From assembly GCA_008632985.1 (NCBI GenBank), contig QPGO01000191.1, positions 124,001 through 145,202 on the forward strand: 21,202 bases of DNA, in the 5' to 3' direction. This document shows positions 1 through 21,202 of the stretch, one piece after another. The DNA is from Psammoneis japonica. Its lineage: Eukaryota. Position 1 is the stretch's first letter; the number at the start of each line of letters is the position of its first letter. The notes below the pieces were generated by a model that was given only the letters and a program-made list of their open reading frames with translations, did not search any database and had not been told where the DNA came from. The translations under genes were made by a program, and so were the position numbers.

Positions 1-827
1 CCATGCAACCAGGGCCAGAGTTGCACTGGCTTCTTTTGGTCCAGGGTGGTTGCTGCAGGTGCAAAGAGTGGGGCACATTGCAGCTGCAGGAGGGCAACAA
101 TGTGACTCTGAGTGTGTGCTGCCAAGCTGAGAAGCCCAGCTTGGTTGTGAGCCAAGCCCTGCCAGGCCTGCTGCCCTGGCTCCACAGCTGCTCCTCCTGG
201 TGTGTGCATCAATTGTTGAAGGAGCACCACATTGACTCAAAGGCTGTGTTTTGGGTGGAACAGAGAGGGAAAGAATTGTTGTCCTCTTGACTGGTGCTTG
301 CTTCAGACCCCACATCATGAGCACAAGCTCCTCTTGAGAAATGAGTGAGAGACACTTCACACAGTCATTTTTGGTGCCTCTCTTTGGCTGCCCACTTGGC
401 ATTGCCAACAAACTCTTGAACCCAACCTCACTCACAATTTCTTCACCCTTCAACCACAAAAGCAGGCTCAACTTTTTGTTGGCTTTTTTGTGGCCAGGGA
501 TCACTGTTGCAGGCACAAATGGTGGGCACATGCCATGTGGCTCTGCTTGGCAACAATGTGATGCCAAGCAAGCATGTGCCACCCACCAAGGAGCCAAGCA
601 GCCCAGCTCAGCTTTGAATGGAGCTCCAGGACAGCAGCCAGCTCTTGGTGCTCCCAGCATGGCTTGCTTGCTCAAGCTGTGCTGCATTCACCCCACAATG
701 CTCTGTGTTGTGGTGGCTTGTCGCAAGCCATGAGGAGTCTGCAGTTGGCCAGGGGCCCATTTTGTAAAGGCCACACATGTTGTGTGAGGGGCCAGGTGCA
801 GAGATCTGCAACAACAGCTTTGTGGCT

Positions 828-1117
828 GTTGGCACCAAGTTGGCATTTGATTGGGAGTCAGTGCTGAGGGGCTGTGAAGTGGCTGTGCTGGGGTCAGGAG
901 CCCAGCCAGCTCACACTCTCTTGTTGTCACAAATTGCTGTCACAGCTGTCTTTGCATTGCAACCAGCCAGGTGCAGTTGGTCCCAAGCTGGCACTTGATT
1001 TGGAGTGACTGCCAAGGAACTGTGAAGTGTGGGGTTGGGCAGTCCAGCCAGCTCACACTCTTTGCTGACAGCAGAAAGTGCTGTCACACCTGTCTTTGCA
1101 TTGTGGTGCCAGCCAGG
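828..1117. repeat. Diverged tandem duplication, two ~143-bp units (828-971, 976-1117)
   Basis: Both units share the blocks ccagccagctcacactct, tgctgtcaca.ctgtctttgcattg and ccagccagg. Minus-strand translations are similar (NAKTGVTA..ELAGL..LHSS..TPNQVPAW vs NAKTAVTA..ELAGL..LHSP..TPNQMPTW). Confidence 0.8.
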
Positions 1118-2354
1118 CACACATGGCCAGAGCAGCCTTGGCACATCCTGCTGACAAAACTGGCAAAACAGCAGCTCTTGTGGTTGGGCCAGCATGCAGG
1201 CAGTCTGGGCACACCCCTGGGAAGTCAAACAGGAAGGAGGGCTCAGCATTGCCGCCAGTGCCAGAAACATGCTCAGCAGCTTGTCTTGAGAGAGATTCGA
1301 GCCCACACAGCCCCGAGCTGGGTGTCTTGGCTGGCAGGTTGGAAAGCATTCTTGAGCACAGTCTGGTGTGTGGGTGGCACTGTCACCAAGAGAGCTGCTC
1401 TGCAGAGGAAGAGGGAAACAGGCAACAGCATTTTGCAAGAACTGTTTTTTTTTTCAATGGTTGGGTGGGATGGGGCAGCATCTGGACTTTGACGGAGCAT
1501 TTGGCGGACAAAGCTTGAGCACAGAGAGCTGTCCACTCAAGCTCCACAAGTGGCACATTCCAAAGGTGACACCACACATGGGCCATTTGTTCATGCATCA
1601 ACATGCATCAAGCTGCAAGTCTCACAAAAAACCACCACCAACCTTTCAACCAACCACCATGGAGGAGAGAACAGGGCAAGAGGTTCGAAACAAGAGTGAT
1701 TCGTTGACTCTCTTCTTGTTTCATGCATTCAAGAGCTTCTTGTCCTTCTTGAACATTTGTTGTGCATTGTTGTCTCTTTTAATTCAAGTGCAAAGAGGAA
1801 TCACTTTTCTTGTTTCTTTCTCTTGAGGGGTTGTTGGTTGTTGAGTGATGCAATTTTTGTTGTCACATTTTTGGAAATGTTGGCAAACCCGATCACTGGC
1901 TTGATTGTCAACCCATTCACCATTTTAAGTCTCCATGGCATAAAATGCCATAAGCCCAGAGCCCTCAATTGTTTCATCAAACGCAGTGCTTTGCACACGT
2001 CCAACATCAACTCGACTCAGTTGAAATCCCAATTTGTGGGCGATGAAAAATCACGAATGTCAAACAAATGGCTACTTTCGACACCAACATCCCCGAGTTC
2101 AATCCAAATGTGACGGTATGCCTTACAGCTTATGACCATGACACATACAAGCATGCTTTATTGTTGCCATCGCGTGCTCGTATTGAAAATGCCGATAGAT
2201 CAAAGTTTACGAAAAGGATGGAATACAAATTCATTTGTGTATTCATTAGTGGCATTGGAATAATGACATTAAGGGCAGAAGGGATCTAAAATCCTTATTC
2301 ATCATTGACATTTCTGTATTGCTCAGAATTTGAATTCTGACCACTGCCGTTAAG

Positions 2355-2493
2355 CATTTAGCTTTCTTTGTGTCGAAGTGTAAATGACACTTAACGATTT
2401 GCACTAATCATATAGCTGTCTCTGTGTCGAAGTGGAAATGACACTTAACGTTTTACACTATTCATTTAGCTTACTTTGACTCGAAGTCAAATG
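2355..2493. repeat. 54-bp tandem repeat, ~2.5 units starting at 2355, 2409 and 2463
   Basis: cat.tagct..ct.tgtgtcgaagtg.aaatgacacttaacg.ttt.cacta.t repeats at exact 54-bp spacing; the third unit is partial. Confidence 0.85.
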
Positions 2494-2551
2494 TCGAGTT
2501 TGGGTTATGGGCTTATCGTTATTCAGCCACGATCATGAAGTCTTTGCCGAA

Positions 2552-2573
2552 AAAAGCCGGTCGACCGGCTTTT
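2552..2573. other. Perfect 22-bp palindrome AAAAGCCGGTCGACCGGCTTTT
   Basis: Read directly; it lies ~190 bp downstream of the stop of the minus-strand ORF ending at 2759. Confidence 0.9.
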
Positions 2574-2758
2574 CTCGAGCTCCAAAAGCTTTAAAAAACA
2601 TAATTGCATTACCCTCAGTGCAGAGCTCGTACGGTAGTGCTGTATGTTTTTTGTGTGAAACGGCATGCACAATGCACACAGCGCATCACGCGTGGTGTTG
2701 CAAATTCCGGCAATGATCATTAGCCAGCTACGATGTGGATGCAACCACTGCCACAGCA

Positions 2759-3033
2759 TCAGCCAAAGGTTCCCAAGAACATTTCGAAACCGAAACTAAC
2801 TGAAACATTCTTGGATGGGGAAATGAGCAGATCGTAAATGCACTCAAGCATGTGTGAGACTAGATGCAATTGTCTCGACTTCATCTCGGCACCGTTCATC
2901 TTGGCCTCTTGCAGCTTCTTCAATGTGCGTTTGCTCCAAATGAAAACACCATCTTGAGCATTGACAACATTCTCTGTTCCATTTGATTCTGAAAAGCCCA
3001 CGCCCACAAATGCTTCCAAGTTTTGGAAGTGCC
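2759..3033 (-). pseudogene. C-terminal part of the ORF interrupted by the copia element (GIY-YIG-like domain, 3' half)
   Basis: Removing 3034-13384 plus one GTGCC copy joins the flanks in frame: ...GLDNL*RGH|FQNLEAFVGVGF...LHLVSHMLECIYDLLISPSKNVSVSFGFEMFLGTFG-stop. The TGA is plausibly a decayed CGA. Confidence 0.7.
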
Positions 3034-3309
3034 TGACAGAAATCGAAGGCAGGCGGCAAGAACTCAAACAATGGCTCCTTGCTGCTGTCTAAATGGCAGA
3101 TGAGTCTCCGCTCAGAGACCATCGCAGGAGCCAAAAGACGTGCAAGTCAGTGCAATCGGGCCACTGTTGTCATTCTTGCGAGCCTTGTGGCTCAAAAGCA
3201 AACTGCATCGCGCGCGAACGCGCGGAACCAAAGCACGCAAAACTGTGAGCGGCAAACTAAACAGCGCGCGACATTTCGCGCGCACCCAAATCCTGTTCAA
3301 ATCCTGTCA
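3034..3309 (-). repeat. 3' LTR (276 bp)
   Basis: Aligns without gaps to 13109-13384; TG...CA termini with a TGACAG/CTGTCA inverted end. Confidence 0.97.
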
Positions 3310-3315
3310 CTCCCC
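3310..3315 (-). other. Polypurine tract (GGGGAG on minus strand) abutting the 3' LTR
   Basis: ctcccc immediately follows the LTR end at 3309, the canonical position for a copia PPT. Confidence 0.8.
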
Positions 3316-3321
3316 AGTTTG

Positions 3322-4870
3322 CTTGAGGAGCCACAGAAACAGATTCGACTTTGGATGGAATGAAGTTCCAGAACATGAGGGGGCGGAGAAGGTCCCAGAC
3401 TTGGGAGCAACCCCAGTGCTTGCTGAGAATGTCAGCAGGGTTGCGGGAGCCTTAGATGAAGTGGAGCTCAAGGCAACCAGAGGCAATTGCCTCACGCACA
3501 CGGTGGAATGACAGTGCGGTGTGTCGCTTGTGTAACTTGGAGTGCGGGATGGTGGCACTGTCTACAACCGACTTGTTGTCACCGAACATGTGGCTGACAT
3601 CATGGATCGGGACGCCAAGGCAGCGCAGGGTGATGTGCAGGTCGACAATCTGCTCGACACAAGTCCTTGCGGCAACAAATTCAGACCCGCAGGTCACAGT
3701 CTCCATGGTGGCTTGCTTCTTGGAGAACCAATCAGCCAGGAATTTGTTGAGGAAGTGGAGCATTCCCATGACAGAGCGTCTGGTGAGCATGCAATGGCAC
3801 AAGTTTGCATCGACGCAGTGGGTGGCAGTGAGGAACTTGCCAAGGGGCGGTGGAGCGTCCTTTGGGATCATCTCTTCTGCTTTGCCGCACACAGAATGCA
3901 TCCATTCATGGGCCGGAGCAGGGAGATCCGAACAGTTGGGCTCTTCCGTGCGAACGCGGAGAGCGCCGTGTCGCATCTTGGAGAGGTGCCCACAGACGCG
4001 TTTGGCACGATCCAAGTGGCCTTGACGGGGCACAGCTCGGAAGCTAGAGAGTGACATGATGGCTGTGGTGGTGTCAATTCGACCAAGGGACACTGCCCAT
4101 TGGAGTGAACCAACAAGAGACTGGAACTTGTGAATGCCATCGGGCCCCAGCAGTTCGGAAGTGTCCAGTTCGGGGTGGTCACCCTTCTCCAGAGGTGACA
4201 GGGCGTTGGTGGCAGGTTTCTCCCCAAACAGTTGGGTGCAGCTGTCGACCATGCACTTGATGCACTTGCACGGAGACAGGCACAAGGTGCCGTTGGGATC
4301 CCGGGAAAAGTCGCAGCCCAGATGGAACTCAATCGGTCCCGCACCCTTGAGCTTGAACTTGTGCTTTTCCGTGAGAGTGTCGACGAAAGATTGAGGGTCC
4401 TTCATGGCAATGGCGAGGTCATCCACACAAACGGCAATGTGTTCATGGTGGTCACCGTTCCTGCGCATCCAAATGTCGGGTTCGGCACGGCAGGGGAAGA
4501 AGCCTTCAGCTTGTGGGCAGTCAGCAAAGCGCTCGTGCCAGCGGAGGCCAGAGCTGGGCAGTCCATGCAGGGCCTTGTGGATGACAAGGATGTGGCCTTT
4601 GAGTTTGCCAAATTCAGGTCCGGCTGCAATGTAGAGCTTCTCCTTGGTGGTGGCTTCAAGGCAGGCATTGCCAATGTTGGTGGCCCATGTCTCCAACTCG
4701 TTGAGTTTGGCCAGGAAAATCATCAGCCGAAGGCCACGGAGGGAGACTGCTCCGGAGCAGACACTGTCGATGGGTGCATCCGTGAGGTGCCCATCAGCTG
4801 CGAGTCGTGCCTTGTGGCGACCGTCGTGTTTCACGTCATGCACTGGGTGCACTCGGATCTTCTTGTGTCC
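3322..4870 (-). pseudogene. pol: Copia reverse transcriptase + RNase H, hypermutated
   Basis: Motifs KHDGRHKARL, IGNACLEA, KALHGL (KALYGL), VCVDDL (YVDD), WFSKKQATMET.TCGSEF, MFGDNKSVV, KLHKRH.ALSFHRVRE. After a premature TAA at 3452-3454 the frame continues NPADILSKHWG. The 3' end is approximate. Confidence 0.95.
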
Positions 4871-4874
4871 CGCA

Positions 4875-4900
4875 GAGTCGCACCACAATCAGGTGTCGAG
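4875..4900 (+). repeat. Left TIR of Sola-type element
   Basis: Exact reverse complement of 8631-8656. A subterminal TGGACATTTC at 4917-4926 is mirrored at 8616-8625. Confidence 0.97.
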
Positions 4901-4940
4901 GGGGGCAATTGGATTTTGGACATTTCGATTTATTTGGCTT

Positions 4941-7900
4941 TCAGTCACGAGTGCAGATCCTGCCTTCCCCACCACACACAAAAAAAAACAACCCAACAGC
5001 GAACCACCATGTTGCTCCATTTTGAGCTACATTGTCGACCTCCTCTGCCTCCTCGACACCATCCAAGTCATCATCATTCTCATCATCGTCAGTGTCGGCA
5101 TCCACAACAGCACAATTGGCTGCAAGTGGTGCAGATTGCGCAGCTGCACTTCCAGCACGAACGTGCTTGACAAGGCGCTGCGCAACTTCATGTTTGAGAC
5201 CCGAAACCGGCAGTCCAAGCAGCCTGAGCTTGTCCTGAATCATTTTCTTGGTGATGTCCTCGGTTCCAAACATCTCGGCAAGCTGTGGCAAGAATGCCTG
5301 AAAGTGTCCCTGTAATTCTGCCGTTCTCTCCGAGTTGTCAATTCGCTCTCTCACCCAGCACGCCTTTGAATCTCGGATGTTCTTAAAAGGACAGGGCTGT
5401 TGGACTTGTTGGCAGCAGGAAAGGCACGAGCAAGGCATTTTTGAAGCGAGAATCTTCCACTTGTCAGGATCCTGTGGCTTTGGGTGGAGAAACCCAACTG
5501 CTTCGTGGAGTTTCTGGGTGTCCTTGATTCGCGTGCCTTGAGGTGCGTTTTAACGATCGGTGAATGCTGTGTGCCTGTGCTCGTTTCTCAGCTTCTCAAA
5601 CTCTTCTTTCTTTTCCGAGACGTGCCCAAACAGTCTTCTAGACACCATGAATGTTTTCTTTCCAAGGATGCCGGGATCGCTTGACGCTTCGAGTGACTTC
5701 CAGTCTGTTTTTGGTTCGTGGTTGCCCAGCTCCCGTCGCATGTGAACAAAGCAGGACAAAGCATCGGGCAGTCGTACCCCGCCAGCGTCCTTTGCACGGT
5801 GTTCCATTTGACTCATGCGGTGCTTCACCACCTTCCCTGCTGCATCCCACACCCCTTTAAAATGACATTTCTGTGCAAACCGGTGAGCAACTGCAACCCC
5901 GTCGACCGTGCTGTGGCCCGCAGTTGTCCGTCCACACCACAATGTGCTTCAGGTTGATGCCACGCTTCTTGAACTCACGCTTGCAGTGTTGAACAATCTC
6001 AAGAAGGCATGCATCATGGAAAACGTGGTCATTCTTCTTCCCTTTTGACATCGTTTCACCAAAGAAGTGCCAGACGTCGCAATCGTTGATTTGCCATTTC
6101 TTGTCTGCACCATTGTGCTTCACTGTGATTGTTCTTGGAGAATGCAGGACAACAAAAATGCAAAGGACAGCATGGGCGTCGACTGAGCAATTGTCAGTGA
6201 GGCACGCGCGAAGATCACACGCAGCGGAGAAGTCGGTGAAAATTGGCAGCTCCTCGATGGTGAGGGCATGTGTGTCAATGCATCGTGTGAGATTGATGAG
6301 TTCAGTCTCACAACAGTGCTTTCTACACTTTTTCAGCTGCATCTGCAGTCGTTCAACAACCGTTTTCACTGGAAGCTCCATGTCCGTCAGTTCAATTTGC
6401 GCACTCTGTTCACCTTTCGCGTTGGTCCCAGCTCTCGGTGCTGGCAGCCATTCCTTCACCGGGATGTTGACATCGCATTCGGTGAGTGCTGCACATTCTT
6501 GTGGCTTCAGTTTGTTGACTCCACAATTCTGACAGTCCCCGTGTGTGCATTTCCAAGGGATTGGCTTTGGTGGGCGGCCTCCAACCTCGGTGCAAAGCAT
6601 TGGCTGTTCCTCTGCCGGACAGCACGCAGCTTCAACCATGGACTTGTAGCCCTTTCCTGGCAGTGAAAAAATGTCATCTGTGCCGGATCCATCATCTTCA
6701 TCCTCCCTCATTTGCATGTGTAAGTCGCAAGTGCAGTTTGTTGCTTTTTCACGAATGACTTTGTTGCTCTTCAATGCTTTGTTCAGCACACTCATGTGCT
6801 CTTCTAGCCCGGTCTTTAGCAAATCCACACAGGAATGCTCAGACGGATCCTGAGCGCACCGGCAAACACAACCTCGGAATCGTTCCTTGCCTGTTGTGCT
6901 GCCACAGGTCTCTTGAAAGGACTTGCAGACATCCGATTGTTGGAACGTGTTGCATCGACTCTCGAGAGTTGCGTCATTCCACACTCTAGCTGGATGTTTT
7001 GCGCTTTCCCCTGTCGCCGGATCCTTGACTTTATAAACCCCACTTGACTCAGTGTCAACTCTAGATCCTTCTTCTGAATGGCAGAACTCAAGTGCGCAAA
7101 GCTCTGCTTCATCGTAGATGCAGTCACTCCGTTTCTTTCTTTTCCGAAATTCAAACTGATCCCCGCTCTCATGGAGGTCACGAGCTCTCTTGCGACTGGC
7201 TTTCACGTTGTGCCATCTGGTTCCCAACCGCCTTGACACCTTTTCTCCGCTGATGGAGGATTGCTCATCTGTTGAATCAGGCAAGCCACAGCAAGCAGCA
7301 GTTAAAACAGCATCAACTGCATTCCTTGTTTGAGCAGGCACTGTGCCATGGTGCTTGTGCTTTTCGAGAAAGTCGTGCAATCCGTCGACAATCGATTTGT
7401 CGACATCAGCATCTTGTGGATTCGCTGCAGCTGTCGCATTGCTCGAATGATCAACACGTTTTTCAAGCATGTCTAGCACTTTACATGCCAATGCTTTGTT
7501 CTTGTCCGTCAAAGCAATGAGTGCCTGCTCCAATCTCTTCACGTGTCGCGACACCGTCTTTTCGGAAACATTGTTTGCTTGCGACAATTTCTCATCAGTG
7601 ACATCGTCCCACTCAAGAACCTTCTTCTTCCTTCCATCAGCATCAAGAAAGTGTTCACTTTTACGACGCAATCCAAGAGCCAGGCCTTTTGAAAAAGGCG
7701 AGAGTAGCTTGCGCTCATCGTCTGAGGCTTTGTTGCTCTTTGTCGGTGTGCCGGCATGAGAAATGCCACTTGCGGAGGTAGCAGCAGAATTGTTGTTGCT
7801 GTTGGAGGCAGCCACAGGTGCAGGAGGAGGAGGAGACTCGTCCTCATTGTCAGCAGGCTGTTTCTTGCTTTTCTCCTTCTCTTCAGCCCTGGCTTTTTTC

Positions 7901-8349
7901 TTTTCGTGAGCCTTCTTGAGCACCTTGAGTAGAGAATTCTTGTCGGACTCAGTCACGGAACAATGCGTGGCTCTGGCAACCACTTTTTTTTTCACATGAT
8001 TGCACCATTCATCCCCTCCTGTGTGGGGTGGTGGGCGATCTCCTTCATCAGTTGCAAAACAGCAGTTGAGCGTTCTGCCGCTAGAATTTGGATCTCCATT
8101 CGGACGAGTGTCAGGAGTGTGCTGTCTTCGGAACGTGCCCATGCCGTTTCCGTTCTCATCATTAGATTGTTTGCATCGTGCATCCCTTGCCAGAGCATCA
8201 TTGAGCAACCCCGAAGTGAGCTGCTCGTCATCAGATGTGCCACACTCTTTCCGAATCAACGCTGCAAAATCATCCGCAATGATCCATCTTCTGCGACACC
8301 CATCGTGGGACGAGACCCTCTGAAATGCTGTGGCAACAGCCTTGCACAT
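4941..8349 (-). pseudogene. Sola2-like DDD transposase with C-terminal Cys cluster, SAP domain and acidic tail; disrupted
   Basis: Motifs FTDFSAACDL (D1), VWTDNCGPQ (D2), HRFAQKCHFKGVWDAAGKVVK (D3; compare the Sola2-type HGKG..D..G..VK). Frameshifting deletion near 5907; stop at 5550-5552. Then CSCLSC....PC and SAP-like ITKKMIQDKLRLLGLPVSGLKHEVAQRL (5172-5255). Confidence 0.8.
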
Positions 8350-8630
8350 GGTTTCCAGCTGCAGGCAATTTCACATTTAGATCCCCATGGGAGTGAAGAA
8401 GCTTGCTTGCCTTTGGCCTGCAGCTGGACGACTGTTCCAGTTGCGGTGAATGCAACCGAGTAGAGATGAAGTGCACTGATGAAAAGGATTCCCTCCGACG
8501 TGGTGTTGGAGGCAATTCTGACGTTGTTGCTGCCGCTGAGCAAAGGAATCCCAGATGTGAGAAACAGCAAAAAAACACTTTTTTCTAAATGTTTTTGTCA
8601 GGATTCCCTTTCTCTGAAATGTCCACGTGA

Positions 8631-8656
8631 CTCGACACCTGATTGTGGTGCGACTC
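8631..8656 (-). repeat. Right TIR of Sola-type element
   Basis: ctcgacacctgattgtggtgcgactc followed by the TSD cgca. Confidence 0.97.
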
Positions 8657-9593
8657 CGCAGGAGGAGTGGAAGACTCGGAGGGCCCGCAGTCATGGAAGA
8701 CTTCGCATTCCTCGAGTTGGTCCATCTCGAGATTAGTTGCGTCTCCCCATTTGCGGTTGCTGCTGCGTTTGTCTGGTGACATGGCAGGTTTGCAGTTCCG
8801 GGGAACTTCGCATCCGCACTTGCAGCAAGGTGCAGTGCGGAAGGAGCGAAGCTTGGCTTGGTTGGCCATGCAGAATGGCTTCTTCTGGCGCCTCGCGATG
8901 GTGCGGAACCGCTTCCAGCCATCAGTGTCGAGAAGTCCGTTCTCTCATGCACAGATGGCACAGGTGACAGGGTTGTCCTTGGCGATGATGGCAAGAGGCT
9001 CGGACGTGATCTCCCCACTTTCCCATTCAAGCACAATGTTGTAGCTTGAGCCTTTCCAGGTTGGGTCATGAGGCTTCAGAGGTCCTTCGTGTGGCACAAT
9101 GCGTCGAAATTTCCAAACAGCAGTGTCTTTGTCTTCTTGCTCAATGTAATTCATGATGTCGTTGCAGGCCAGGACTTCCTTGCATTTGTCGTTGTTGACA
9201 GAGCAGACGAACTTGGTGAGCTCGGGATTGCCGTTCACTTTCCATTCGTGGTCTTCGACAGCCTTGACGATGCGAGCTCTGTGGTGCTGTCCGTCCTCTT
9301 GTGGCTGCATGAGGAAGGTGCGTCCGATGATGTCTTGCGGGTTGAAAACTGGCATCTTGGGTGTCCTGATCTCCCCATTGGGTGAATCGACGGGGTTGTC
9401 GTCATGGCGAGATTTGATGATGGGTTCAGGTGGCTCCCCATCAGGAGGATCAAGATGCAGGTTTCGAACGGCAGGATCGGTGGCAGCGGATCGTACGTTG
9501 GACCGGCAGAGGATCTTCTGAGTCTCGTCAGAGAGAATCTTGAAGGTCATTTGGTGGCCGACGTGCTCAGCAATGCCAACAAAGCGTCCACAC
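8657..9593 (-). pseudogene. pol: Copia pol middle segment: integrase C-terminal region and linker to RT
   Basis: GRFVGIAEHVGHQMTFKIL, IIGRTFL, WKFRRI..HEGPL, LEWESGEITSEPL.IIAKDNPVTCA, then past a stop NGLLDTDGWKRFR...KWGDATNLEMDQLEECEVF. I recognise these as typical of diatom CoDi pol. Confidence 0.88.
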
Positions 9594-12170: not shown

Positions 12171-13108
12171 GGCAGACAAAAGTGGTGTCAGGACAAGCGA
12201 TTCTTGTTGGGACGCGAAGGCAGACTTGAAACTTGGGTGAGAACAGACTTCACTTGAAATGGACTTGACTTGAAATCTTGAACCACCTTAAAATCAGAAG
12301 TCGCCAGGCTGTGCCACCCCGTTCGTTGTCAAGTGCCAAACTTCCTGTCCGGTCCGTAGAGTTGTGCCGGCACGTCCGAACCCGCAGCCAGCGGCGCTTT
12401 GGGTTGCTTGCGAGCGGAGCAGCGGGTTGTAAACCCCTGCAGGTGAGCTGACTAGAGGTGGACAAGACCCCCGAACCGTTCTCATTTTATGTTGGTTGGA
12501 TTTCCCGATCAGACTGGCCAGTTGACGCAGGCGTCAGGCGCTGTGGACAAACGAACAAACGCGGGAAAAAACACCCTCGCCCCAACGTAGGCTGCAATCA
12601 CAGCTGCTTGCTCTCACAGTCGTCCTCGTGGACCCAGCAGAACTGTGGAGCACCAGTGGTCCGGGGTAGATCAGGTGCAATGGACTCGGTGTGCTTGTAG
12701 AGTGGCAGCAAAGCCGCAGTCCAAAGAGTGAGCACAAGTTCTTGGCCGTGAAGACATGCACATGTGTGTGTCTTCAGCGACGAAGATCCTTGAATGTGCA
12801 GGGTTCTTGACCGTCAACCGTTGAATGGGTGTGTCAAGGGATGAGGATCAAGGACAGACTTGGATGTGACCATTGAATGCATGTCTTCAGCGACAAAAGG
12901 CAGCACAATCAATCCAGATGTCCAGCGGCAAGGAGACTTGACGGTGACGTTAAATTCCTGCCGATGCCTGGTGTTGAATGCGCGCAGACTTGCCGATGCA
13001 TGTAGAACATGTACGGAGGTCCACGCAGAATTGAAATGGCGTCGTCGGCAAATCAACGACGACGATGGCGGTTGCTCAATGGGTTGACAATGAGCAAGAC
13101 TGTCAATC

Positions 13109-13384
13109 TGACAGAAATCGAAGGCAAATGGCAAGAATTCAAACAATGACTCCTTGCTGCTGTCTAAACAGCAGATGAGTCTCCGCTCAGAGACCGTCAC
13201 AGGAGCCGAAAGACGTGCAAGTCGGTGCAATCGGGCCACTGTTGTCATTCTTGTGAGCCTTGTGGCTCGAAAGCAAACTGCATTGCGCGCGAACGCGTGG
13301 AACCAAAGCACACAAAACTGTGTGCGGCAAACCAAACAGTGCACGACATTTCGCGCGCACCTGAATCTTGCTCAAATCCTGTCA
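13109..13384 (-). repeat. 5' LTR (276 bp)
   Basis: Matches 3034-3309 with ~24 substitutions (manual count); followed by the TSD GTGCC. Confidence 0.97.
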
Positions 13385-14749
13385 GTGCCCACGTCAGAGA
13401 TTGTCCAAACCATGCCCCTCGGACTCACATGGATGGAGCAGGTGCAACATCGACTTCAGCTCCGACAACTGTTTGCACTTTGATGCCTTGAGATGTTCTT
13501 GATGTCGAATTTGGAAAGTCCGATTCTCTTGGCCAGCCCCGAACACTTTCCCACTGCGTGTCCAGCCTTCGACATTGACAGCATCCCGAAACAAGCAGCA
13601 GCCCATGGGACTTGGATTGCAGCCCTCGTGAGTCAACTCAAATGCACCCTGCTGTGGAGATGCTAGAAGGTGTGAATCAGATTTCACACAAGACATGTCA
13701 GTCTTGACATGTCCAGCTGGCACAACCAATGCGCAAAGTGCTGGGAGGTTCTCCTCGAATGCCCGCAGCACAAAGTGAAAGTGACAGTCTTCATTGGGAA
13801 TGTGCAGCTGCTTCATGTGATGGAATCACTGTTTCACAAGCGGCACCATCAACTCTTCCCTGCCCTGCCCTTGGAGTTGTGGTGCTCCACCATCCTTCAT
13901 CGCCACGGCTTTGTTGCTGTCATGAACGGGCCCACCATTGTGGCCAACCTTTGCACGCATGGCATCTGTGAACGGCACGCAAATGTGCATTTTGTGCCAG
14001 GCAAAGAAAGCTTGCTCCACGTCAGATTCTTTCCAATGCAGGGGGCACTCTCATCCCGTCGCTGCACTTTTTGACTTTCTCATTCAACGTGGACTTCTTG
14101 ACAGGCACACAGCCCTTCTCGATCATTTGAGCTTTAAAAGCTCCCAAATTCCGGTGTCCAGATTTCTTCACCTGAACAATGGCTTCTGTCGCCTCAGCCG
14201 GTGTGTGTTGAAATCCATTGAGGGGACGTGGTGCCTTGATCCCCCCATCCCGTCCAATGACAGTCCTGGCAGCACCAGTTTTCGATTCTTTGTTTTCGTC
14301 GCCATTGTGCTTCGCTCCTGCCGTCACCAAGTTGGAGCCGAAGTTTTGCATCTCACGAAATGCACGATTCTTTTTCTGCAACGATCGATCATTTCTCTCC
14401 TCCTCACACATGTCTTTCTCTTCCTCTCTTTTTCAAGTTAACTGCTGGCATTGTTTCCGCGCTTGAACGATGTCACATTTGCTGCTGCTCGTGTCAGTGA
14501 GGTCGAACCTTCTTTGAGTTTCTGTGAAACAACAAAGAAATCTTTGAGCATTTTTGACAGCTTCTCCTTGTCTCCCTTTGAAGACCCCAACTCCACAGAT
14601 TCTAACACATTCGCGCGCGTTTCAAGAAGTGTTCCAGCATTTTTCACAAGCACGCCAACCTCAAAAATCTTTGATGTCTTCACTGCATCATTGCGTCCAC
14701 CACAGGAAAGAGACACTCCTGCACTCGACATGGTCGCGATGGCACCAAT
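13385..14749 (-). pseudogene. Degenerate, internally deleted transposon-like ORF with a GIY-YIG-like C-terminal domain (host of the copia insertion)
   Basis: Broken reading frames 14438-14731, 14022-14411 (PRPLNGFQHTPAE...MIEKGCVPVKKSTL, helical DNA-binding-like), 13826-14020 (DGGAPQL) and 13394-13816 (GCCLFRD...WTRSGK...FQIRHQEH). Continues in frame at 3033. Domain names are inference. Confidence 0.55.
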
Positions 14750-15117
14750 CTGAAATGTAAAGTGAGGGAAAATGTCAGTTTTTTTTTCATTTTCGTTTGA
14801 ACATAAAAAGCACGACTAATTCAAATTCAAAACAGTCATGGTTGACAAGACTCGAACTGTCATGTCCAAGTCATCAATGAGACTTGCCACTGTTCACTGC
14901 ATTGCGGGGCCAGCTGGTGACAAATTGACTGTCACAGCTGAGTTTGCGTCCAGTGCTGTGAAAGCTGTTGTTGGCAAGCAAGCTGAAGCTCAAGAAGGCC
15001 TTGAGGGAACAGAGCAACAAGGCAGAACACACGGTCAATTTGGGCTTGCCTTGAGAGAATGTTGCAGCTGGCAACAAAATGCAACGTCTCACATTCAGCC
15101 AGCAAGCCTGTCATTCA

Positions 15118-15242
15118 GTCGGCGGGTTGGCTGGTCCGTTGGTTGGTTGGTCGGCTGGTCGGCTGGTTGGCTGGTCAGCTGGTTGGTTGGTCGGTTGGTC
15201 AGTTGGTTGGTTGGTTGGTCGGTTGGTCGGTTGGTCGGTTGG
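15118..15242. repeat. Degenerate (GGTT/GGTC/GGCT)n tetranucleotide tract
   Basis: Read directly; ends exactly at the duplication junction. Confidence 0.9.
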
Positions 15243-15964
15243 TCTCCTCCTCACACATGTCTTTCTCTTCCTCTCTTTTTCAAGTTGACTGCTGGCATTG
15301 TTTCTGCGCTTGAACGATGTCACATTTGCTGCTGCTCGTGTCAGTGAGGTCGAACCTTCTTTGAGTTTCTGTGAAACAACAAAGAAATCTTTGAGCATTT
15401 TTGACAGCTTCTCCTTGTCTCCCTTTGAAGACCCCAACTCCACAGATTCTAACACATTCGCGCGCGCTTCAAGAAGTGTTCCGGCATTTTTCACAAGCGC
15501 GCCAACCTCAAAAATCTTTGATGTCTTCACTGCATCATTGCGTCCACCACGGGAAAGAGACACTCCTGCACTCGACATGGTCGCGATGGCACCAATCTGA
15601 AATGTAAAGTGAGGGAAAATGTCAGTTTTTTTTTCATTTTCGTTTGAACATAAAAAGCACGACTAATTCAAATTCAAAACAGTCATGGTTGACAAGACTT
15701 GAACTGTCATGTCCAAGTCATCAATGAGACTTGCCACTGTTCACTGCATTGCGGGGCCAGCTGGTGACAAATTGACTGTCACAGCTGAGTTTGCATCCAG
15801 TGCTGTGAAAGCTGTTGTTGGCAAGCAAGCTGAAGCTCAAGAAGGCCTTGAGGGAACGGAGCAAAGAGGCAGAACACATGGTCAATTTGGGCTTGCCTTG
15901 AGAGAATGTTGCAGCTGGCAACAAAATGCAGCGTCTCACATTCAGCCAGCAAGCCAGTCATTCA

Positions 15965-16065
15965 GTCGGCAGGTTGGCTGGTCCGTTGGTTGGTTGGTCG
16001 GCTGGTCGGCTGGTTGGTTGGTCGGTTGGTCGGTTGGTCGGTTGGTCCGTTGGTTGGTTGGTTGG
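15965..16065. repeat. Degenerate (GGTT/GGTC/GGCT)n tetranucleotide tract, second copy
   Basis: Read directly. Confidence 0.9.
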
Positions 16066-16373
16066 CGATGAAGGTTTGGCCACTTTGAGCACTTCTGAGG
16101 CTCAAAAAAGGGTCAGGGGATGCGCTCCAGCTCTTTTTTGGATCGTGCTGTGTGTTGTGCACGTGTGTTTCTACGTGACTTTGGTGGAATTGTGCATCAT
16201 TTTGCAGTGCAATTGCTGGGTGATCCATTCAACAGTTTTTGACATTTTTTTCTTCTGTGTCATTTGCAAATGCATTGAGAATGGCGCAGGGCAGGCAGAT
16301 TGCCAAAAACTTTGAGTGTGGACAGGCACAAATGCACTTGAAGATGAAAATGTCCACCAATGAAATTCTTGCA

Positions 16374-16976
16374 CTGCAGAGCTCGCACGCAGAATTCTGC
16401 GGGCCGAGTGTCACAAAACATCCCACCCAGGACTGGAACCCNNNNNNNNNNNNNNNNNNNNNNNNNNNNNNNNNNNNNNNNNNNNNNNNNNNNNNNNNNN
16501 NNNNNNNNNNNNNNNNNNNNNNNNNNNNNNNNNNNNNNNNNNNNNNNNNNNNNNNNNNNNNNNNNNNNNNNNNNNNNNNNNNNNNNNNNNNNNNNNNNNN
16601 NNNNNNNNNNNNNNNNNNNNNNNNNNNNNNNNNNNNNNNNNNNNNNNNNNNNNNNNNNNNNNNNNNNNNNNNNNNNNNNNNNNNNNNNNNACCAACCAAC
16701 CAACCAACCAACCAACCAACCAACCAACCAACCAACCAACCAAGAGACGCAACTTGATGTCCAGCAATGAAGAAATGAGATGGGGCACAGCAATTGCCCC
16801 ATGAAGAATGTTGGTGCACTCTTCAACACCAACACATTCCAGCTGAGTGCCAATCACATTGAAAATGTGGCGCTGTGAATGGAGTCAACAACAGGACCAG
16901 CGGCCGATGGGTTCCAGTCCCAGGTGGGACTTTTTGTGACATTGGGCCCGCAGAATTCTGCGTGCGAGCTCCGCAG
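16374..16976. mobile_element. Non-autonomous TIR element (MITE-like) with probable TA TSD, enclosing (ACCA)n and a 49-bp satellite motif
   Basis: 16374-16441 and 16908-16976 are ~68-bp imperfect inverted repeats (CTGC.GAGCTCGCACGCAGAATTCTGCGGGCC...ACTGGAACCC). Flanks are CA (16372-16373) and TA (16977-16978). The interior contains an assembly gap, so length is uncertain. Confidence 0.65.
16442..16690. other. Assembly gap (N run)
   Basis: Run of n. Confidence 1.
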
Positions 16977-17516
16977 TAAAATTGTCAAGCAATGGATGTG
17001 TGAATGATCGCCAACAGAAAAAGAGGCAATTTTGTGAACGTGTCTCCTCCTCCACACTTGAAGTGCATTCTTTGCAGCATGCCCGGGCACATTCTTTAGA
17101 CTCCAATCAAGTGACAGCCACAGCAATGCATCCAAGCCAAAAGAGTGCAACCCACTCAATCTTCTTCTCAAGAGGTTTGAAATCCTTTTTTGAAAAGTTC
17201 CTTGGACAAATGAGTGTGGGAAGAACCAGTGGATCTCACCGTGAAAAATCTGATGCAATTCTGCAATGCGTGAGAACCTTCTCCCATCACAGGCTTTGGC
17301 AGCACCCATTTGAAAGAAATCTTTCCAATTGCCAGAGATTGAAGTCTTGGCGCCAATCGCGCCAGATGCCCGTTTGCGGCCCACACATGGGCCGCAAATT
17401 TTTTCAAATCTTCAACGATGCAGACAATCGATGAATTGACCCCACAGTCGAATTGTCCATGCCCGAAAACATGGGAGTCGACACTTCATCTGTTGAAAAA
17501 GTCCCAGTGGTTGCTG

Positions 17517-17962
17517 TGCAGCATGCGTGCAGACAAAAGGTTATTTTGTCACGCCCTTTGTGACGTTTGAAGGCTGCAACACGTCGCCGTGACACATTGG
17601 CTCTCATTGGCAGCTGTGTGTTGCACTCCTCCCCATGTGTCGCGCATCCACATGGCTCTTCACTGATGTGTGCTGACACTGCACGGTTTTGGCGGAACAG
17701 TGTGGGTGCGCGTGAAGGAACATGCAGAACTGCACAGAGTTTTTACGCGTTCGACAGTGATCAACGTTGCTGCAGACAACTCCCACTCAGGGTTTCGAAA
17801 CCCTGGCCTCCTGCCCAATGGTTGCGATGAACCACTCCGCTGTGAATTCACAATGCAGCGTGCATGCAGACAAAAGGTCATTTTGTCACGCCCTTTGTGA
17901 CATTCAAAGGCTGCAACACGTCGCCGTGATGCATTGACTCTTGTCAGCAGCTGTGTGTTGCA
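17517..17962. repeat. 109-bp direct repeat pair (17517-17625, 17854-17962) in the left subterminal region
   Basis: Ungapped alignment differing only by transitions; each copy has small hairpins gacaaaa..ttttgtc and gtcac..gtgac. Confidence 0.92.
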
Positions 17963-18018
17963 GCCTCTAAAATGTGTGTGCATTTTCGCGCATTTTTTCG
18001 CCGATTTCTCCCTCCGCC

Positions 18019-18702
18019 ATGGCGGACCCTACGGCGGGCCACACCGGTGAAGGACATTCGCTCCATCAATCTCGGACGCCTGACAACATCGTCAGAGAAG
18101 TGCTGGATGTGTCAGCATTGCTTGCAGCGGGAACGGACATGCCTTTTTCGCCTGTTCAAGACATGCCGCGAAATCCGGTGTCGCAGTCCACTGCCGAAGC
18201 ACCATCTGTGCCCGTGCATGCCCCCCCTCCAAGTCTTCCTGTGGAGTCGCCAGTGGCCAAGAGAGCTCGAGTGCGGCTCAGCTTTGCCAAACAAAAGTTG
18301 ATCATTTCTGACATGATGTGCTTGCATCCTCAACACCAGCTGCTCTGTTCCGCCGAGGAAAGCATCAGCGGCATGGAAGTTCACGGGCAGATGCTGGAGT
18401 GTCCTCGAAAAGCAAACGGCAATGAGTTCAATGCTGCGGCTCGTTGCACATTCATCCCGGGGTGCGATCTGACATTCGACGAGGGTGGAGTCAGCTGTCG
18501 TTCTCGTCATTGTCCCATCAGGCAATGCAACAAAGACAAGCCTGACAAATTCAGAGTGGATTTCTTCATGCTGGCGGATGCCCTTTGGTGTTTCGTGCTC
18601 CATGTTGCATCTGTTTTCTGCTCCAGTGGAGCAGATGGCAAAACAAAAACTCCATTGGAACAGTTGAGGAACGACATTTGTTCTCTGAGGAAAAACCATT
18701 AG
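18019..18702 (+). pseudogene. piggyBac-like transposase remnant (N-terminus fused by deletion to the first catalytic-Asp region)
   Basis: FIPGCDLTFDEGG..CRSRHCPIRQCNKDKPDKFRVDFFMLADA matches the piggyBac pattern PG..L..DE.....R....QY...KP.K......D with Y->C/H changes. The rest of the DDD core is missing. Confidence 0.8.
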
Positions 18703-18855
18703 AAACCAATTTCCGCAGCAATGTTGCATCCATTTTGGTGGGTCGCAAAATTGCAGCTGTTGCAAAGATGTGCACAGCATGCCAGCAGCTGATGATTTCA
18801 AGATTGGTTTGGCCAAATTAAAAAACAACTGCATGACGAGCAGCTGCTTGGTGTC

Positions 18856-19278
18856 CTGCCCACATTCTTTGAAACCCGTGCGCGGCTCTTCATGGGTTTG
18901 GGGATGCAGATCATGAATTTTATGATGAATGCAATCCGGCAGCTCAACACGTTGATGACGACCAAGGAATCCATGAAGAAGAGAAATGGACTCGTGGCAG
19001 AGAGAGAAACGGATCTGCTTGTTGCTTGGACCCGTTTCTTCTCCAACATCTCCAATCGAAACCATGCAATCACAAATGGCAGGCATGACACAGGGAGCTT
19101 CACCGCAATCACGGCAATGCACCAAGGGCGTGATTCTGCCCTTCGTTGCCTTCACTGCAGTGTTGGCATCTTTTTCGCTGTCCACAACTGCGGCGACAGC
19201 GTCGTCGGCAGGGACGAACGAAACACTCGGAATGGCCGCTTCCGAACCTTTGTCAAATGCAGCCCAGAATGATGCCAT
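18856..19278 (-). pseudogene. Small Cys-rich ORF resembling the P2X7 C-terminal (ballast) / Kolobok KolX-type domain
   Basis: C..CGEAPC...NKQIRFSLC...LHGFLGRHQRVELPDCIHHKIHDLHP....RTGFK fits the pattern N...R...Y....HG.LG...R..(L/I)P.C....I...(Y/F)P.....GF after Y->C/H restoration. ATG at 19278; the original stop is inferred (CAG from TAG at 18856-18858). Confidence 0.65.
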
Positions 19279-19691
19279 GACGGCAGCTTCAGAAATCAGA
19301 AGACGAAAAAAGCAGCCCGCAGTTGGCATCAAAATAAGAGAGACAATGGCAGAACGACAGTCAGCGACAACAAAAGGGTGCCCACATGCGTCGTCGCGCA
19401 TGTTCTGCTCACGTTCGCTGTCCATGTCAACAGAGGTCGATGCTCGATGCGAAAATGGAAGCAGTGCAAAAAATCACTTTCGACAACAAATGACAAGATG
19501 TCACATCGCTCTTGCAACGTTGATTTCCTGCGCAAAAACAACAACGAGATGAGCTTCGTTTTGAGAATTGTGGCAAATTTGCGGCCCGCATGTGGGTCGC
19601 AAAAATTTGCGATAAAAATTTTTGCCGCCCAGATGTGGGCCGCAAAATCGCGCGTTGAGCGTCTGACGTGATTGGCATCAAAAAAGAATTT

Positions 19692-19749
19692 GCACAGAAT
19701 TCTGCAAGCCGAGTGTCACAAAACGTCCCACCTGGAGCTGGAACCCATC
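19692..19749 (+). repeat. Third, partial copy of the MITE-like TIR, same orientation as 16374-16441
   Basis: gcacagaattctgcaagccgagtgtcacaaaacgtcccacctggagctggaacccatc aligns with the inner part of the other two copies. Confidence 0.8.
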
Positions 19750-19795
19750 AGGGACAAGGAGAGTCAGGGCGTGGGATGAAAAGGAACTTCAGCGC

Positions 19796-21202
19796 TGACC
19801 CACCGACCTGCCAACCCACCGACCCACCGACCCGCCGACCCACCAACCCGCCAACCTGCCGACCCGCCGACCTGCTGACCCACCGACCCGCCGACCCGCC
19901 AACCAACCAACCCGCCGACCCGCCGACCCGTCGACCCGTGGACCCACCGACCCACTGACCCACTGACCCACTGACCAACCAACCAAGGGATGTGATTTGA
20001 TGTCCAGCAATGAAGAAATCAGATGGGGCGCTCCGCCGACCCGCCGACCCACCGACCAGCCGACCCACCGACCCACTGACCCACCGACCCACCGACCCGC
20101 CGACCCACCAACCCACCGACCCGCCGACCCACCGACCCACCGACCCGCCGACCCGCCGACCCACCGACCCACCGACCTGCCGACCCACCGACCCGCTGAC
20201 CCACTGACCCGCCGACCCACTGACCCGCCGACCCACTGACCCGCCGACCCGCCGACCCACCGACCCACCGACCAGCCGACCTGCCGACCCGCCGACCCAC
20301 CAACCCATCAACNNNNNNNNNNNNNNNNNNNNNNNNNNNNNNNNNNNNNNNNNNNNNNNNNNNNTCAACCTGCCGACCCACCGACCCGCCGACCCACCGA
20401 CCCACTGACCCACCGACCCACCGACCCACCGACCCGCCGACCCGCCGACCCGCCAACCCACCGACCCGCCGACCCGCCGACCCACTGACCAGCCAACCAA
20501 GGGATGTGATTTGATGCCCAGCAATGAAGAAATTAGATGGGGCGCTCCGCCAACCTGACGACCCGCCGACCCGCCGACCCGCTGACCACCGACCCGCCGA
20601 CCCACCGACCCGCCGACCCGCCGACCTGCCAACCCACCGACCCACCAACCCACCGACCCGACGACCCACCGACCCACCGACCCGCCAACCCACCGACCCA
20701 CCGACCCACCAACCCGCCGACCCGCCAACCCACCTACCCACCGACCCACCGACCCGCCGACCCGCCAACCCACCGACCCACCGACCGCCGACCCGCCGAC
20801 CCACCGACCCACCGACCCACCGACCCACTGACCAACCAACCAAGGGATGTGATTTGATGTCCAGCAATGAAGAAATTGGATGGGGCACCCCGCCGACCCA
20901 CCGACCCACCGACCCACCGACCTGCCGACCCGCCGACCCGCCGACCCACCGACCGCCCACCGACCCACCGACCCGCCGACCCGCGACCCGCCGACCCGCC
21001 GACCCGCCAACCAACCAACCCGCCGACCCACCGACCTGCCGACCCGTCGACCCGTGGACCCACCGACCCACTGACCCACTGACCCACCAACCCACCGACC
21101 CACTGACCAACCAACCAAGGGATGTGATTTGATGTCCAGCAATGAAGAAATCAGATGGGGCGCTCCGCCGAACCCGCCGACCCACCGACGCAGCCGAACC
21201 CG
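19796..21202. repeat. Composite satellite: degenerate (CCGA-CCCR)n tracts punctuated by a conserved 49-bp motif; runs off the window end
   Basis: Motif CCAAGGGATGTGATTTGATGTCCAGCAATGAAGAAAT..GATGGGGC.C at 19983-20031, 20497-20545, 20840-20888 and 21115-21163, with a diverged copy at 16740-16788. Confidence 0.93.
20313..20364. other. Assembly gap (N run)
   Basis: Run of n. Confidence 1.

Follow-up and report, generated by a model that had tools for sequence, protein, structure and literature searches.

Mobile elements at the locus

We analyzed a stretch of 21,202 nt (contig QPGO01000191.1, positions 124,001 to 145,202; "the window" below means this whole stretch), which carries a Ty1/Copia long terminal repeat (LTR) retrotransposon interrupted by a DNA transposon and accompanied by further repeats and satellites, and in which the dinucleotide TpA (hereafter TA) is almost absent. 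The observed/expected ratio of TA over the window is 0.12 (n = 137), with CA at 1.54, TG at 1.53 and CG at 0.72. A single 0.95-kb island (1926-2870) holds 46 of the 137 TA, and the window without the island retains 91 TA in 19,956 bases, where 200 mononucleotide shuffles gave 1084 ± 27 and a minimum of 1017. Neither AA (1.22) nor AT (0.89) is depleted, so the loss is specific to TA and does not extend to A or T generally. A first-pass annotation made from the letters alone had described TA as nearly absent, with about five occurrences each in 3310-4870 and 9600-11600, and the counts are exactly five and five. Its wording that every repeat is TA-depleted goes too far, as the island is part of a repeat of ~90 copies and keeps its 46 TA (observed/expected 0.58). 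Unclassified flanking DNA at 2871-3032 and 13392-15863 is depleted as well.

The Ty1/Copia retrotransposon occupies 3034-13384 on the minus strand and is recognized by tblastn alignment to relatives' polyproteins, the RVT_2 domain, its LTRs and its target-site duplication (TSD). The 3' LTR (3034-3309, minus strand, 276 bp, TGACAG...CTGTCA) and the 5' LTR (13109-13384, minus strand, 276 bp) are ~91% identical, and the 5-bp duplication GTGCC that flanks them at 3029-3033 and 13385-13389 marks 3034-13384 as a real integration event. Between the LTRs lie an open frame of 478 aa for reverse transcriptase (RT) and RNase H (3452-4888, minus strand; RVT_2, Pfam E 9e-19) and the gag-protease-integrase part of the polyprotein (8606-12137, minus strand), located by tblastn to relatives and broken by a frameshift and a deletion. 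Polyproteins of intact relatives (1821-1923 aa, from metagenome loci) align by tblastn to 12137-9594, 9607-8606 and 4870-3371 on the minus strand. All defining features of the class are present: RVT_2, the gag-protease-integrase-RT order, LTRs ending in TG...CA and a 5-bp TSD. The element is dead, and an internal deletion near 9591 has removed residues 838-1012 of the reference polyprotein. At 9591/9593, contigs of other Copia copies depart from the window and read on with different sequence. Pfam did not recognize gag and integrase in their mutated form. TA density in this Copia is 5.2/kb versus 53.5/kb in unmutated relatives (164 kb), a loss of ~90%. A search with the RT frame gave 2206 relatives at E ≤ 1e-3, with identities of 67-68% for the best, and the only one with a name is a transcript of Cylindrotheca fusiformis (63% identity); the Copia relatives look diatom-like, and a diatom host is plausible. 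When further copies from the genome of the window were sought by protein search, no relative above 69% identity came back.

Inside the Copia element lies a cut-and-paste DNA transposon of 3780 bp (4876-8655, minus strand), whose terminal inverted repeats (TIRs; 4876-4900 and 8631-8655) match perfectly over 25 bp and which is flanked by the 6-bp TSD CCGCAG (4870-4875 and 8656-8661). Its empty site is also seen, other Copia copies in sequencing run X1 and its sister runs reading from 4875 straight into the sequence after 8661. The transposase frame (5857-8370, minus strand, 837 aa, C-terminus truncated) corresponds to no Pfam model; a word-based protein search with it gave nothing, and an exhaustive HMMER search then gave 650 homologues, the best at 43% identity. 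These relatives, from a library of 1.8 billion proteins, typically measure 900-1250 aa, with a SAP domain at the C-terminus in some of them. The family alignment holds an invariant D708 and D812. Residues 689-918 of a modelled homologue (mean predicted local distance difference test score 72) align to the catalytic cores of integrase, IstA and Mos1 at Z 8.4-10.2, only moderately above the tool's stated background, with a root-mean-square deviation of ~3.1-3.4 Å over ~150 residues; Foldseek alone found no match to the model at E ≤ 0.001. The nested element is read, with the help of this model, as a putative DDE cut-and-paste transposon of unassigned superfamily. It contains ~30 TA in 3.8 kb (observed/expected ~0.14), and all five conserved Tyr columns of its transposase now hold Cys (three) or His (two), which bears out the suggestion of the first-pass annotation that DNA transposons carry the signature. 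Because a transposon of this kind has no RNA stage and yet is equally TA-poor, the process acts on DNA and not on retroelement RNA or cDNA only.

Polarity and specificity of the changes

The direction of change was read from an alignment of the window's RT frame with the best 60 of its 2206 relatives, in which a column was called conserved at ≥80%. Among the 478 columns, 288 are conserved and the window deviates at 42. A single TA change accounts for 20 of these replacements (12 TA>TG and 8 TA>CA) and CG>CA/TG for a further 10; the others comprise one other transition, nine transversions and two multiple changes. The 31 single-transition replacements are thus distributed as 20 at TA, 10 at CG and one elsewhere, and this near-confinement to TA and CG, both of them self-complementary pyrimidine-purine dinucleotides, indicates two superimposed processes, a methyl-CpG-type decay and a TA-specific A:T>G:C change. 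Since both TA products occur, eight of the 20 being T>C on the sense strand, both strands are affected. The abundance of CpG proposed earlier applies to part of the window: the ratio of CG is 0.63-0.80 within the Copia element and 0.07 in 1-1925, and 10 of the 42 replaced RT residues are themselves CpG-type.

Tyrosine, encoded by TAY (Y, pyrimidine), registers the TA loss directly. The 478-aa frame retains one Tyr, as had been noticed at first reading, and the altered motifs CVDD, KALHGL, NACL, TCGSEF, RLAAD and VHPVHD are all found in its translation. Relative to the 60 homologues, every one of the 15 conserved Tyr columns of the RT is replaced (Cys 9, His 5, Phe 1). Over the whole polyprotein, the 31 Tyr sites conserved among relatives now read Cys at 20, His at 5, Tyr at 3, Phe at 2 and Ser at 1. 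When the window is aligned with L003, the intact relative nearest to it (71% identity in the RT), 63 Tyr of L003 correspond to Cys 33, His 12, Tyr 4, Phe 4 and other residues 10; in a control comparison of L003 with another relative, L001, 68 Tyr correspond to Tyr 50 and Phe 6, with no Cys and no His. The earlier claims that both strands are hit, and that an A:T to G:C mutator acts on TA in chromosomal DNA, find support in the RT spectrum, in the mixture of Cys and His, and in the depletion of a retrotransposon and a DNA transposon alike.

The TA that survive are not a random sample with respect to their neighbors. The contexts YTAR (R, purine; CTAA/TTAG, TTAA and CTAG) make up 42 of the 91 survivors versus 16% in unmutated relatives, and contexts with A before or T after (ATA/TAT) make up 10 of the 91 versus 49%; ATAT, ATAC/GTAT and ATAG/CTAT do not occur among the survivors at all. 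The shift has a chi-square p of ~1e-17, and the four TA-depleted metagenome loci described below follow the same order (p ~2e-7). In the Copia element alone, densities per kb go from 16.4 in relatives to 0 in the window for TAT, from 19.5 to 2.6 for TAC, from 9.0 to 1.5 for TAA and from 7.9 to 1.1 for TAG. These sequence comparisons suggest that the mutator prefers TAY (TAT/TAC) over TAA/TAG. A preference for a 3' pyrimidine beside the changed A would make Tyr codons yield Cys more than His. Tyr codons that follow a pyrimidine became Cys 14 times and His once, and those that follow a purine 6 and 4 times, a trend only (Fisher p 0.12). Trinucleotide gains and losses against the relatives, which differ in base composition, do not separate strand bias from context.

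The TA-normal island and other repeats

The TA-normal island at 1926-2870 is non-coding, with a GC content of 0.42, and its edges are sharp: the ratio of 0.58 inside falls to 0.02 and 0.00 in the flanks. It serves as an internal control of the window. A 54-bp tandem repeat lies within it at 2351-2487, and neither TIRs, nor a TSD, nor a coding frame was found in it. Contigs of its ~90-copy repeat also cover a TA-free part from 1499 onward. The 20 differences listed between the window and other copies in 1721-2346 divide evenly into transitions (10) and transversions (10); run X1 over 1-16400 (16.4 kb) shows 476 transitions versus 86 transversions. Next to the island, the unclassified repeat at 1-1925 (~60-115 copy-equivalents) has two TA (0.02) and nine CG (0.07), with CA at 2.08 and TG at 1.66. 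Its open reading frames (ORFs) match no Pfam family. It is probably the oldest piece of the window, in which both decay processes are complete.

On the other side of the Copia element, a tandem duplication of two 823-bp copies (14396-16065), 97.6% identical, is equally TA-poor in both copies, and a pair of 109-bp direct repeats (17517-17962), 88% identical, differs at four CA-versus-TG sites and one TA-versus-CA site. A Tyr-free frame at 17971-18702 on the plus strand is a candidate remnant of a piggyBac-like transposase, the match being weak: DDE_Tnp_1_7 at E 9e-4 falls under the curated cut-off, and PDB entry 6x67 is hit at E 0.12. An 8-mer satellite at 19797-21116, broken by a spacer of ~50 bp, consists of the units GACCCGCC (37), GACCCACC (42) and GACCTGCC (6), which vary as CG/CA/TG. 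The satellites had been counted among the repeats that show the signature; this unit never held a TA and is uninformative on the point. One site of the spacer, in turn, reads TTAG, TCAG or TTGG depending on the copy. Related short satellites (GACCCGCC, TGGTCGGT and ACCA) occur at 19797-21116, 15125-16065 and 16691-16743, and their unit variants form CG/CA/TG triplets, which indicate heavy CpG decay and hence, probably, cytosine methylation in the region.

The window contains 38 ORFs of at least 150 aa, many of them overlapping, and long open frames occur in all six frames because the stops TAA and TAG are nearly gone. Beyond chance and low-complexity matches, a Pfam scan assigned no family to the gag/integrase part or to another 19 ORFs, and searches of the window for Rfam families and tRNAs found none. 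No RNA dataset is listed among those that contain the sequence.

Copy number and comparison of duplicates

Copy number was taken from summed contig depth, for which exact single-copy pieces give ~36-59. The Copia family reaches a summed depth of 50,000-140,000, which corresponds to roughly 1000 copies that share ≥90% identity. Values of 3100-5400 over 1-2735 correspond to ~60-115 copies, and 4000-5200 over the island (1926-2870), where a single copy would give ~40-60, to a repeat of ~90 copies. At the other extreme, the nested transposon has a depth of 39-79 in exact-match contigs, or about a single copy, and 13676-15863 a summed depth of 54-268, or about one to five copies. Both of these low-copy segments are as TA-depleted as the ~1000-copy Copia. 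The proposal of the first-pass annotation that the process is directed at repeats is unsupported by these values, as a transposon at about single-copy depth is depleted and a ~90-copy repeat keeps TA at 0.58; earlier copies of the transposon may, however, have diverged beyond 90% identity.

Duplicated segments within the window allow the changes to be compared directly. The two LTRs show 22 difference events in 276 bp: 12 CpG-type, one TA versus CA, two CA versus TG, six other transitions and one transversion. Between the 823-bp tandem copies there are 20 differences, of which 11 are CpG-type and one is TA-type; as both copies are equally TA-poor, most of the TA loss probably preceded that duplication. 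Discordance of CA versus TG at the same site, a diagnostic double difference, is seen at two sites in the LTR pair, at four in the 109-bp pair (17517/17854) and at one in each of two shorter pairs, and the LTRs, the 823-bp copies and the 109-bp repeats each show one direct difference of TA versus CA or TG. Together with the depleted nested transposon, the changes on both strands of the RT and the TA/CA/TG site of the satellite spacer, these discordances point to action on DNA and speak against editing limited to retrotransposition. Within the Copia family, T accounts for 57% of depth at 13237 and G for 37% at 13238, which requires that some copies carry TA. The 40 variable places covered, out of 590, are too few to give a consensus TA state of the family. 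The timing of loss in the Copia element allows three readings, in which the LTRs had always been poor in TA, the source copy passed on part of the loss, or a fast loss came to a stop.

The same signature in related elements

Four of 50 related metagenome loci are TA-poor (observed/expected 0.06, 0.13, 0.27 and 0.31), and the other 46 lie at 0.52-1.02. The protein survey covered 251 aligned relatives with at least six informative Tyr columns, out of 19 conserved Tyr columns. Nine of them, the query included, have Cys or His at half or more of these columns, five at 25-50% and 215 at ≤10%, and the pattern of Cys and His differs from element to element. Unaffected relatives at the same columns hold Tyr 2969, Phe 100, His 37 and Cys 10. 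The carriers of the signature in metagenome and assembly data are the loci L028, L029, L039 and L009 and the proteins P0192, P0147, P0095, P0142 and P0030, with Tyr replaced by Cys or His in them from partially (6/13 conserved Tyr columns) to completely (9/9).

Two of these loci, L028 and L029, are 94.5% identical over 1722 bases, with 79 difference events: 25 TA versus CA or TG, 20 CA versus TG, 8 CpG-type, 14 other transitions and 12 transversions. TA sites thus account for 45 of the 79, which, judged from the aligned sequences, represents independent TA changes in a pair of copies or alleles that belong to one family. The polymorphic TA sites of this pair carry no context signal (7 versus 5 with a 3' pyrimidine).

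A proposed mechanism and its alternatives

We consider it probable that the dead mobile elements gathered in the window were hypermutated at TA, on chromosomal DNA, by an activity of the host against silenced or foreign DNA. These elements are a Copia retrotransposon with a nested DDE transposon, unclassified repeats and a satellite. Some 90% of TA would have become CA or TG through A:T>G:C transitions, added to ordinary CpG>TpG/CpA decay. What the sequence shows is the signature with its restriction to one dinucleotide, changes on both strands, a DNA transposon among the substrates and a sharp local limit that spares the 0.95-kb island; the end state would be the saturation of the TpA-only local hypermutation measured directly in mutation-accumulation lines of the alga Bigelowiella natans (preprint 10.64898/2026.01.13.699255). 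The most likely agent would act on A, or on the T opposite it, specifically in 5'-TA-3'. The favored candidate would be a DNA adenine deaminase, whose product inosine is read as G, with TAT/TAC preferred over TAA/TAG. Such a process would be enzyme-driven, would choose its targets and may serve in genome defense.

Several observations weigh against this reading. Copy number does not predict depletion, the ~90-copy island repeat being spared and a low-copy element depleted. The LTR differences are mostly at CpG, with three at most at TA, and the 823-bp pair has one TA-type difference among 20, so that most of the loss may be older or inherited. The context comparison uses coding Copia DNA as its reference and survivors from all parts of the window, and the excess of Cys over His at Tyr sites (20:5, p 0.004) could come from a sense-strand bias instead of sequence context. 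The window contains no host gene, which leaves the word "targeted" to one 0.95-kb island and to analogy, and no deaminase or other candidate enzyme was observed in it. Runs X1-X4, in which the sequence is found, come from a single sample, and the assembly itself may have been built from them.

This last point is what an artefact of sequencing, base-calling or assembly would have in its favor. We find it hardly credible: contigs of run X1 match 2549-3083, 4846-6570 and 7177-8685 without a difference, a TA-normal stretch lies within the same record, unrelated metagenome records carry the same signature, and the changes are codon-consistent replacements of conserved Tyr. It also seems improbable that the Copia element was hypermutated at birth, by A>I editing of its RNA and/or deamination of its cDNA during retrotransposition, and integrated dead, with resident DNA left untouched. 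The shared TA poverty of two LTRs that differ mainly at CpG would fit such an origin, as would the preponderance of Tyr>Cys, a sense-strand A>G change, over Tyr>His, and independent patterns among copies of one family are predicted by it as well. It leaves unexplained, however, why a cut-and-paste DDE transposon is depleted to the same degree with all five of its conserved Tyr changed, why the unclassified flanks at 2871-3032 and 13392-15863 are TA-poor, and why T>C on the sense strand makes up eight of the RT's 20 TA-type replacements; in B. natans, moreover, the preprint places the mutations in resident integrated DNA during culture.

If instead the whole genome were subject to a TpA>CpA/TpG bias or to avoidance of TA, the window would merely be neutral DNA. 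Apart from 0.95 kb, all of its 21 kb is depleted, regardless of element class and copy number, as such a bias would have it, and the window offers no host gene for comparison. The island speaks against this, with its ratio of 0.58 and abrupt edges; other copies of the island repeat differ by an ordinary mix of changes, and the B. natans process is, according to the preprint, confined to particular regions. We regard an untargeted bias as rather unlikely. A somewhat greater, though still minor, chance is left to another chemistry under the same targeting, namely a modified base in silenced chromatin (for example thymine oxidized to 5-hydroxymethyluracil, which mispairs with G, or decay of a methylated adenine) or error-prone repair. 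TpA is self-complementary, which makes A>G and T>C indistinguishable, no deaminase was seen, and the ADAT2 candidate of the preprint is described there as untested. Within this group, WA>WG errors of the polymerase-eta type (W, A or T) are unlikely, with AA at 1.22 and few transversions at former TA sites. Host-driven, TA-specific change of chromosomal DNA, with adenine deamination as the favored chemistry, is the explanation that we regard as most probable.

Comparison with known systems

The first-pass annotation knew of no description of such a signature in diatoms. In the literature searched for it, in diatoms or elsewhere, one preprint does describe it, having measured TpA>CpA/TpG hypermutation in B. 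natans; a second preprint on phytoplankton makes no mention of the signature. In B. natans, 231 of 302 new mutations fell in two integrated viral regions, 230 of the 231 were A>G/T>C, and all 230 were on TpA (10.64898/2026.01.13.699255). The mutations arose during culture in resident integrated DNA of mutation-accumulation lines, at ~6e-7 per site per generation, ~1000-fold over background; only some lines were active, and one of the regions is single-copy. That genome holds 124 TA-depleted clusters, with transposon-type domains among the TA-poor genes, and an ADAT2-like protein is proposed as a candidate. By the cut-offs of the preprint (Rho_TA ≤0.43, Rho_CA+TG ≥1.52; 10.64898/2026.01.13.699255), the window, at TA 0.12, CA 1.54 and TG 1.53, falls inside the range.

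The two cases agree in that changes are only A>G/T>C and only on TpA, giving CpA and TpG, that loss of TA is coupled to gain of CA and TG, that transposon-like genes and, in the window probably, single-copy DNA are affected, and that the effect is local. They differ in degree and in substrate: the window has lost ~90% of its TA whereas the giant-virus region of B. natans still has 3.3% TA, and viral inserts are affected there, a ~1000-copy Copia family and a DDE transposon here. The preference for TAY over TAR is not reported in the portion of the preprint available, which names three transposon-type Pfam families as enriched, RVT_2 not among them, and does not mention Copia, LTRs or diatoms. 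The rate was measured directly in B. natans, and the window offers a sequence signature alone. The organism of the window probably belongs to a lineage other than that of B. natans, judging by its sequences.

Targeted A:T>G:C hypermutation of chromosomal DNA is otherwise known, in the literature searched, from this single 2026 preprint on one alga. The window adds transposons of both classes as substrates, saturation, and sharp local boundaries, as well as an extended context, TAT/TAC being removed more fully than TAA/TAG, that any candidate enzyme has to match, and it adds the same mark in several environmental relatives. We offer as a tentative proposal, which may well prove wrong, that a TA-specific DNA-editing defense exists in at least two distant lineages (Rhizaria and probably a diatom or other stramenopile), that it works by adenine deamination at 5'-TAY-3' in silenced chromatin, that it can saturate thousand-copy families, and that it is frequent enough in nature to turn up in several unrelated metagenome contigs. 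If true, a TA-editing defense in two lineages would be an ancient counterpart of repeat-induced point mutation (RIP), running in the opposite direction, and if the host is a diatom the system would span eukaryotic supergroups. There are practical consequences too: regions of this kind give spurious long ORFs in six frames, so that gene callers would over-predict, GC rises by ~5 points, and the encoded proteins escape domain searches, as the gag and integrase parts did with Pfam.

Among better-known systems, RIP of ascomycete fungi resembles the process in its dinucleotide-specific transitions on both strands of chromosomal DNA, in killing mobile elements and in leaving a dinucleotide skew. RIP, however, changes CpA to TpA and so enriches TA, whereas the window has TA at 0.12 and CA and TG at ~1.53, with changes that run from TA to CA/TG; RIP also needs duplication, in which it may differ from the process here, a low-copy element being affected and a ~90-copy repeat not. 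APOBEC3/AID deaminases likewise restrict by hypermutation in a short sequence context and leave dead integrated copies, but their target is C, which becomes U in single-stranded cDNA and shows as G>A in the plus strand, whereas the changes here are A:T>G:C and include a DNA transposon. Hyperediting of double-stranded RNA by ADAR-type enzymes shares the A>G change and the preference for a 5' U/T. It would reach only retroelements and the transcribed strand, whereas the opposite strand took eight of the 20 TA changes of the RT, and the process also affects a cut-and-paste element. ADAR is reported to favor a 3' G, the opposite of the window, where TAG survives best. Decay of methyl-CpG also ends in CpA and TpG and is present as a second, separate process, which accounts for 10 of the 42 replaced RT residues, 12 of the 22 LTR differences and the CG/CA/TG variants of the satellites; being a G:C>A:T change at CpG, it is unable to remove TA. 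The earlier judgment that RIP, decay of 5-methylcytosine, RNA editing and RT error do not explain the loss is upheld, as each either runs in the wrong direction or is at odds with an affected DNA transposon and two affected strands. As the cause of TA loss, RIP and the APOBEC-type, ADAR-type and CpG-decay processes are each contradicted by one or more of the defining features tested, and the window, which fits the B. natans kind on every feature that could be tested, is a further, saturated instance of TpA-only hypermutation.

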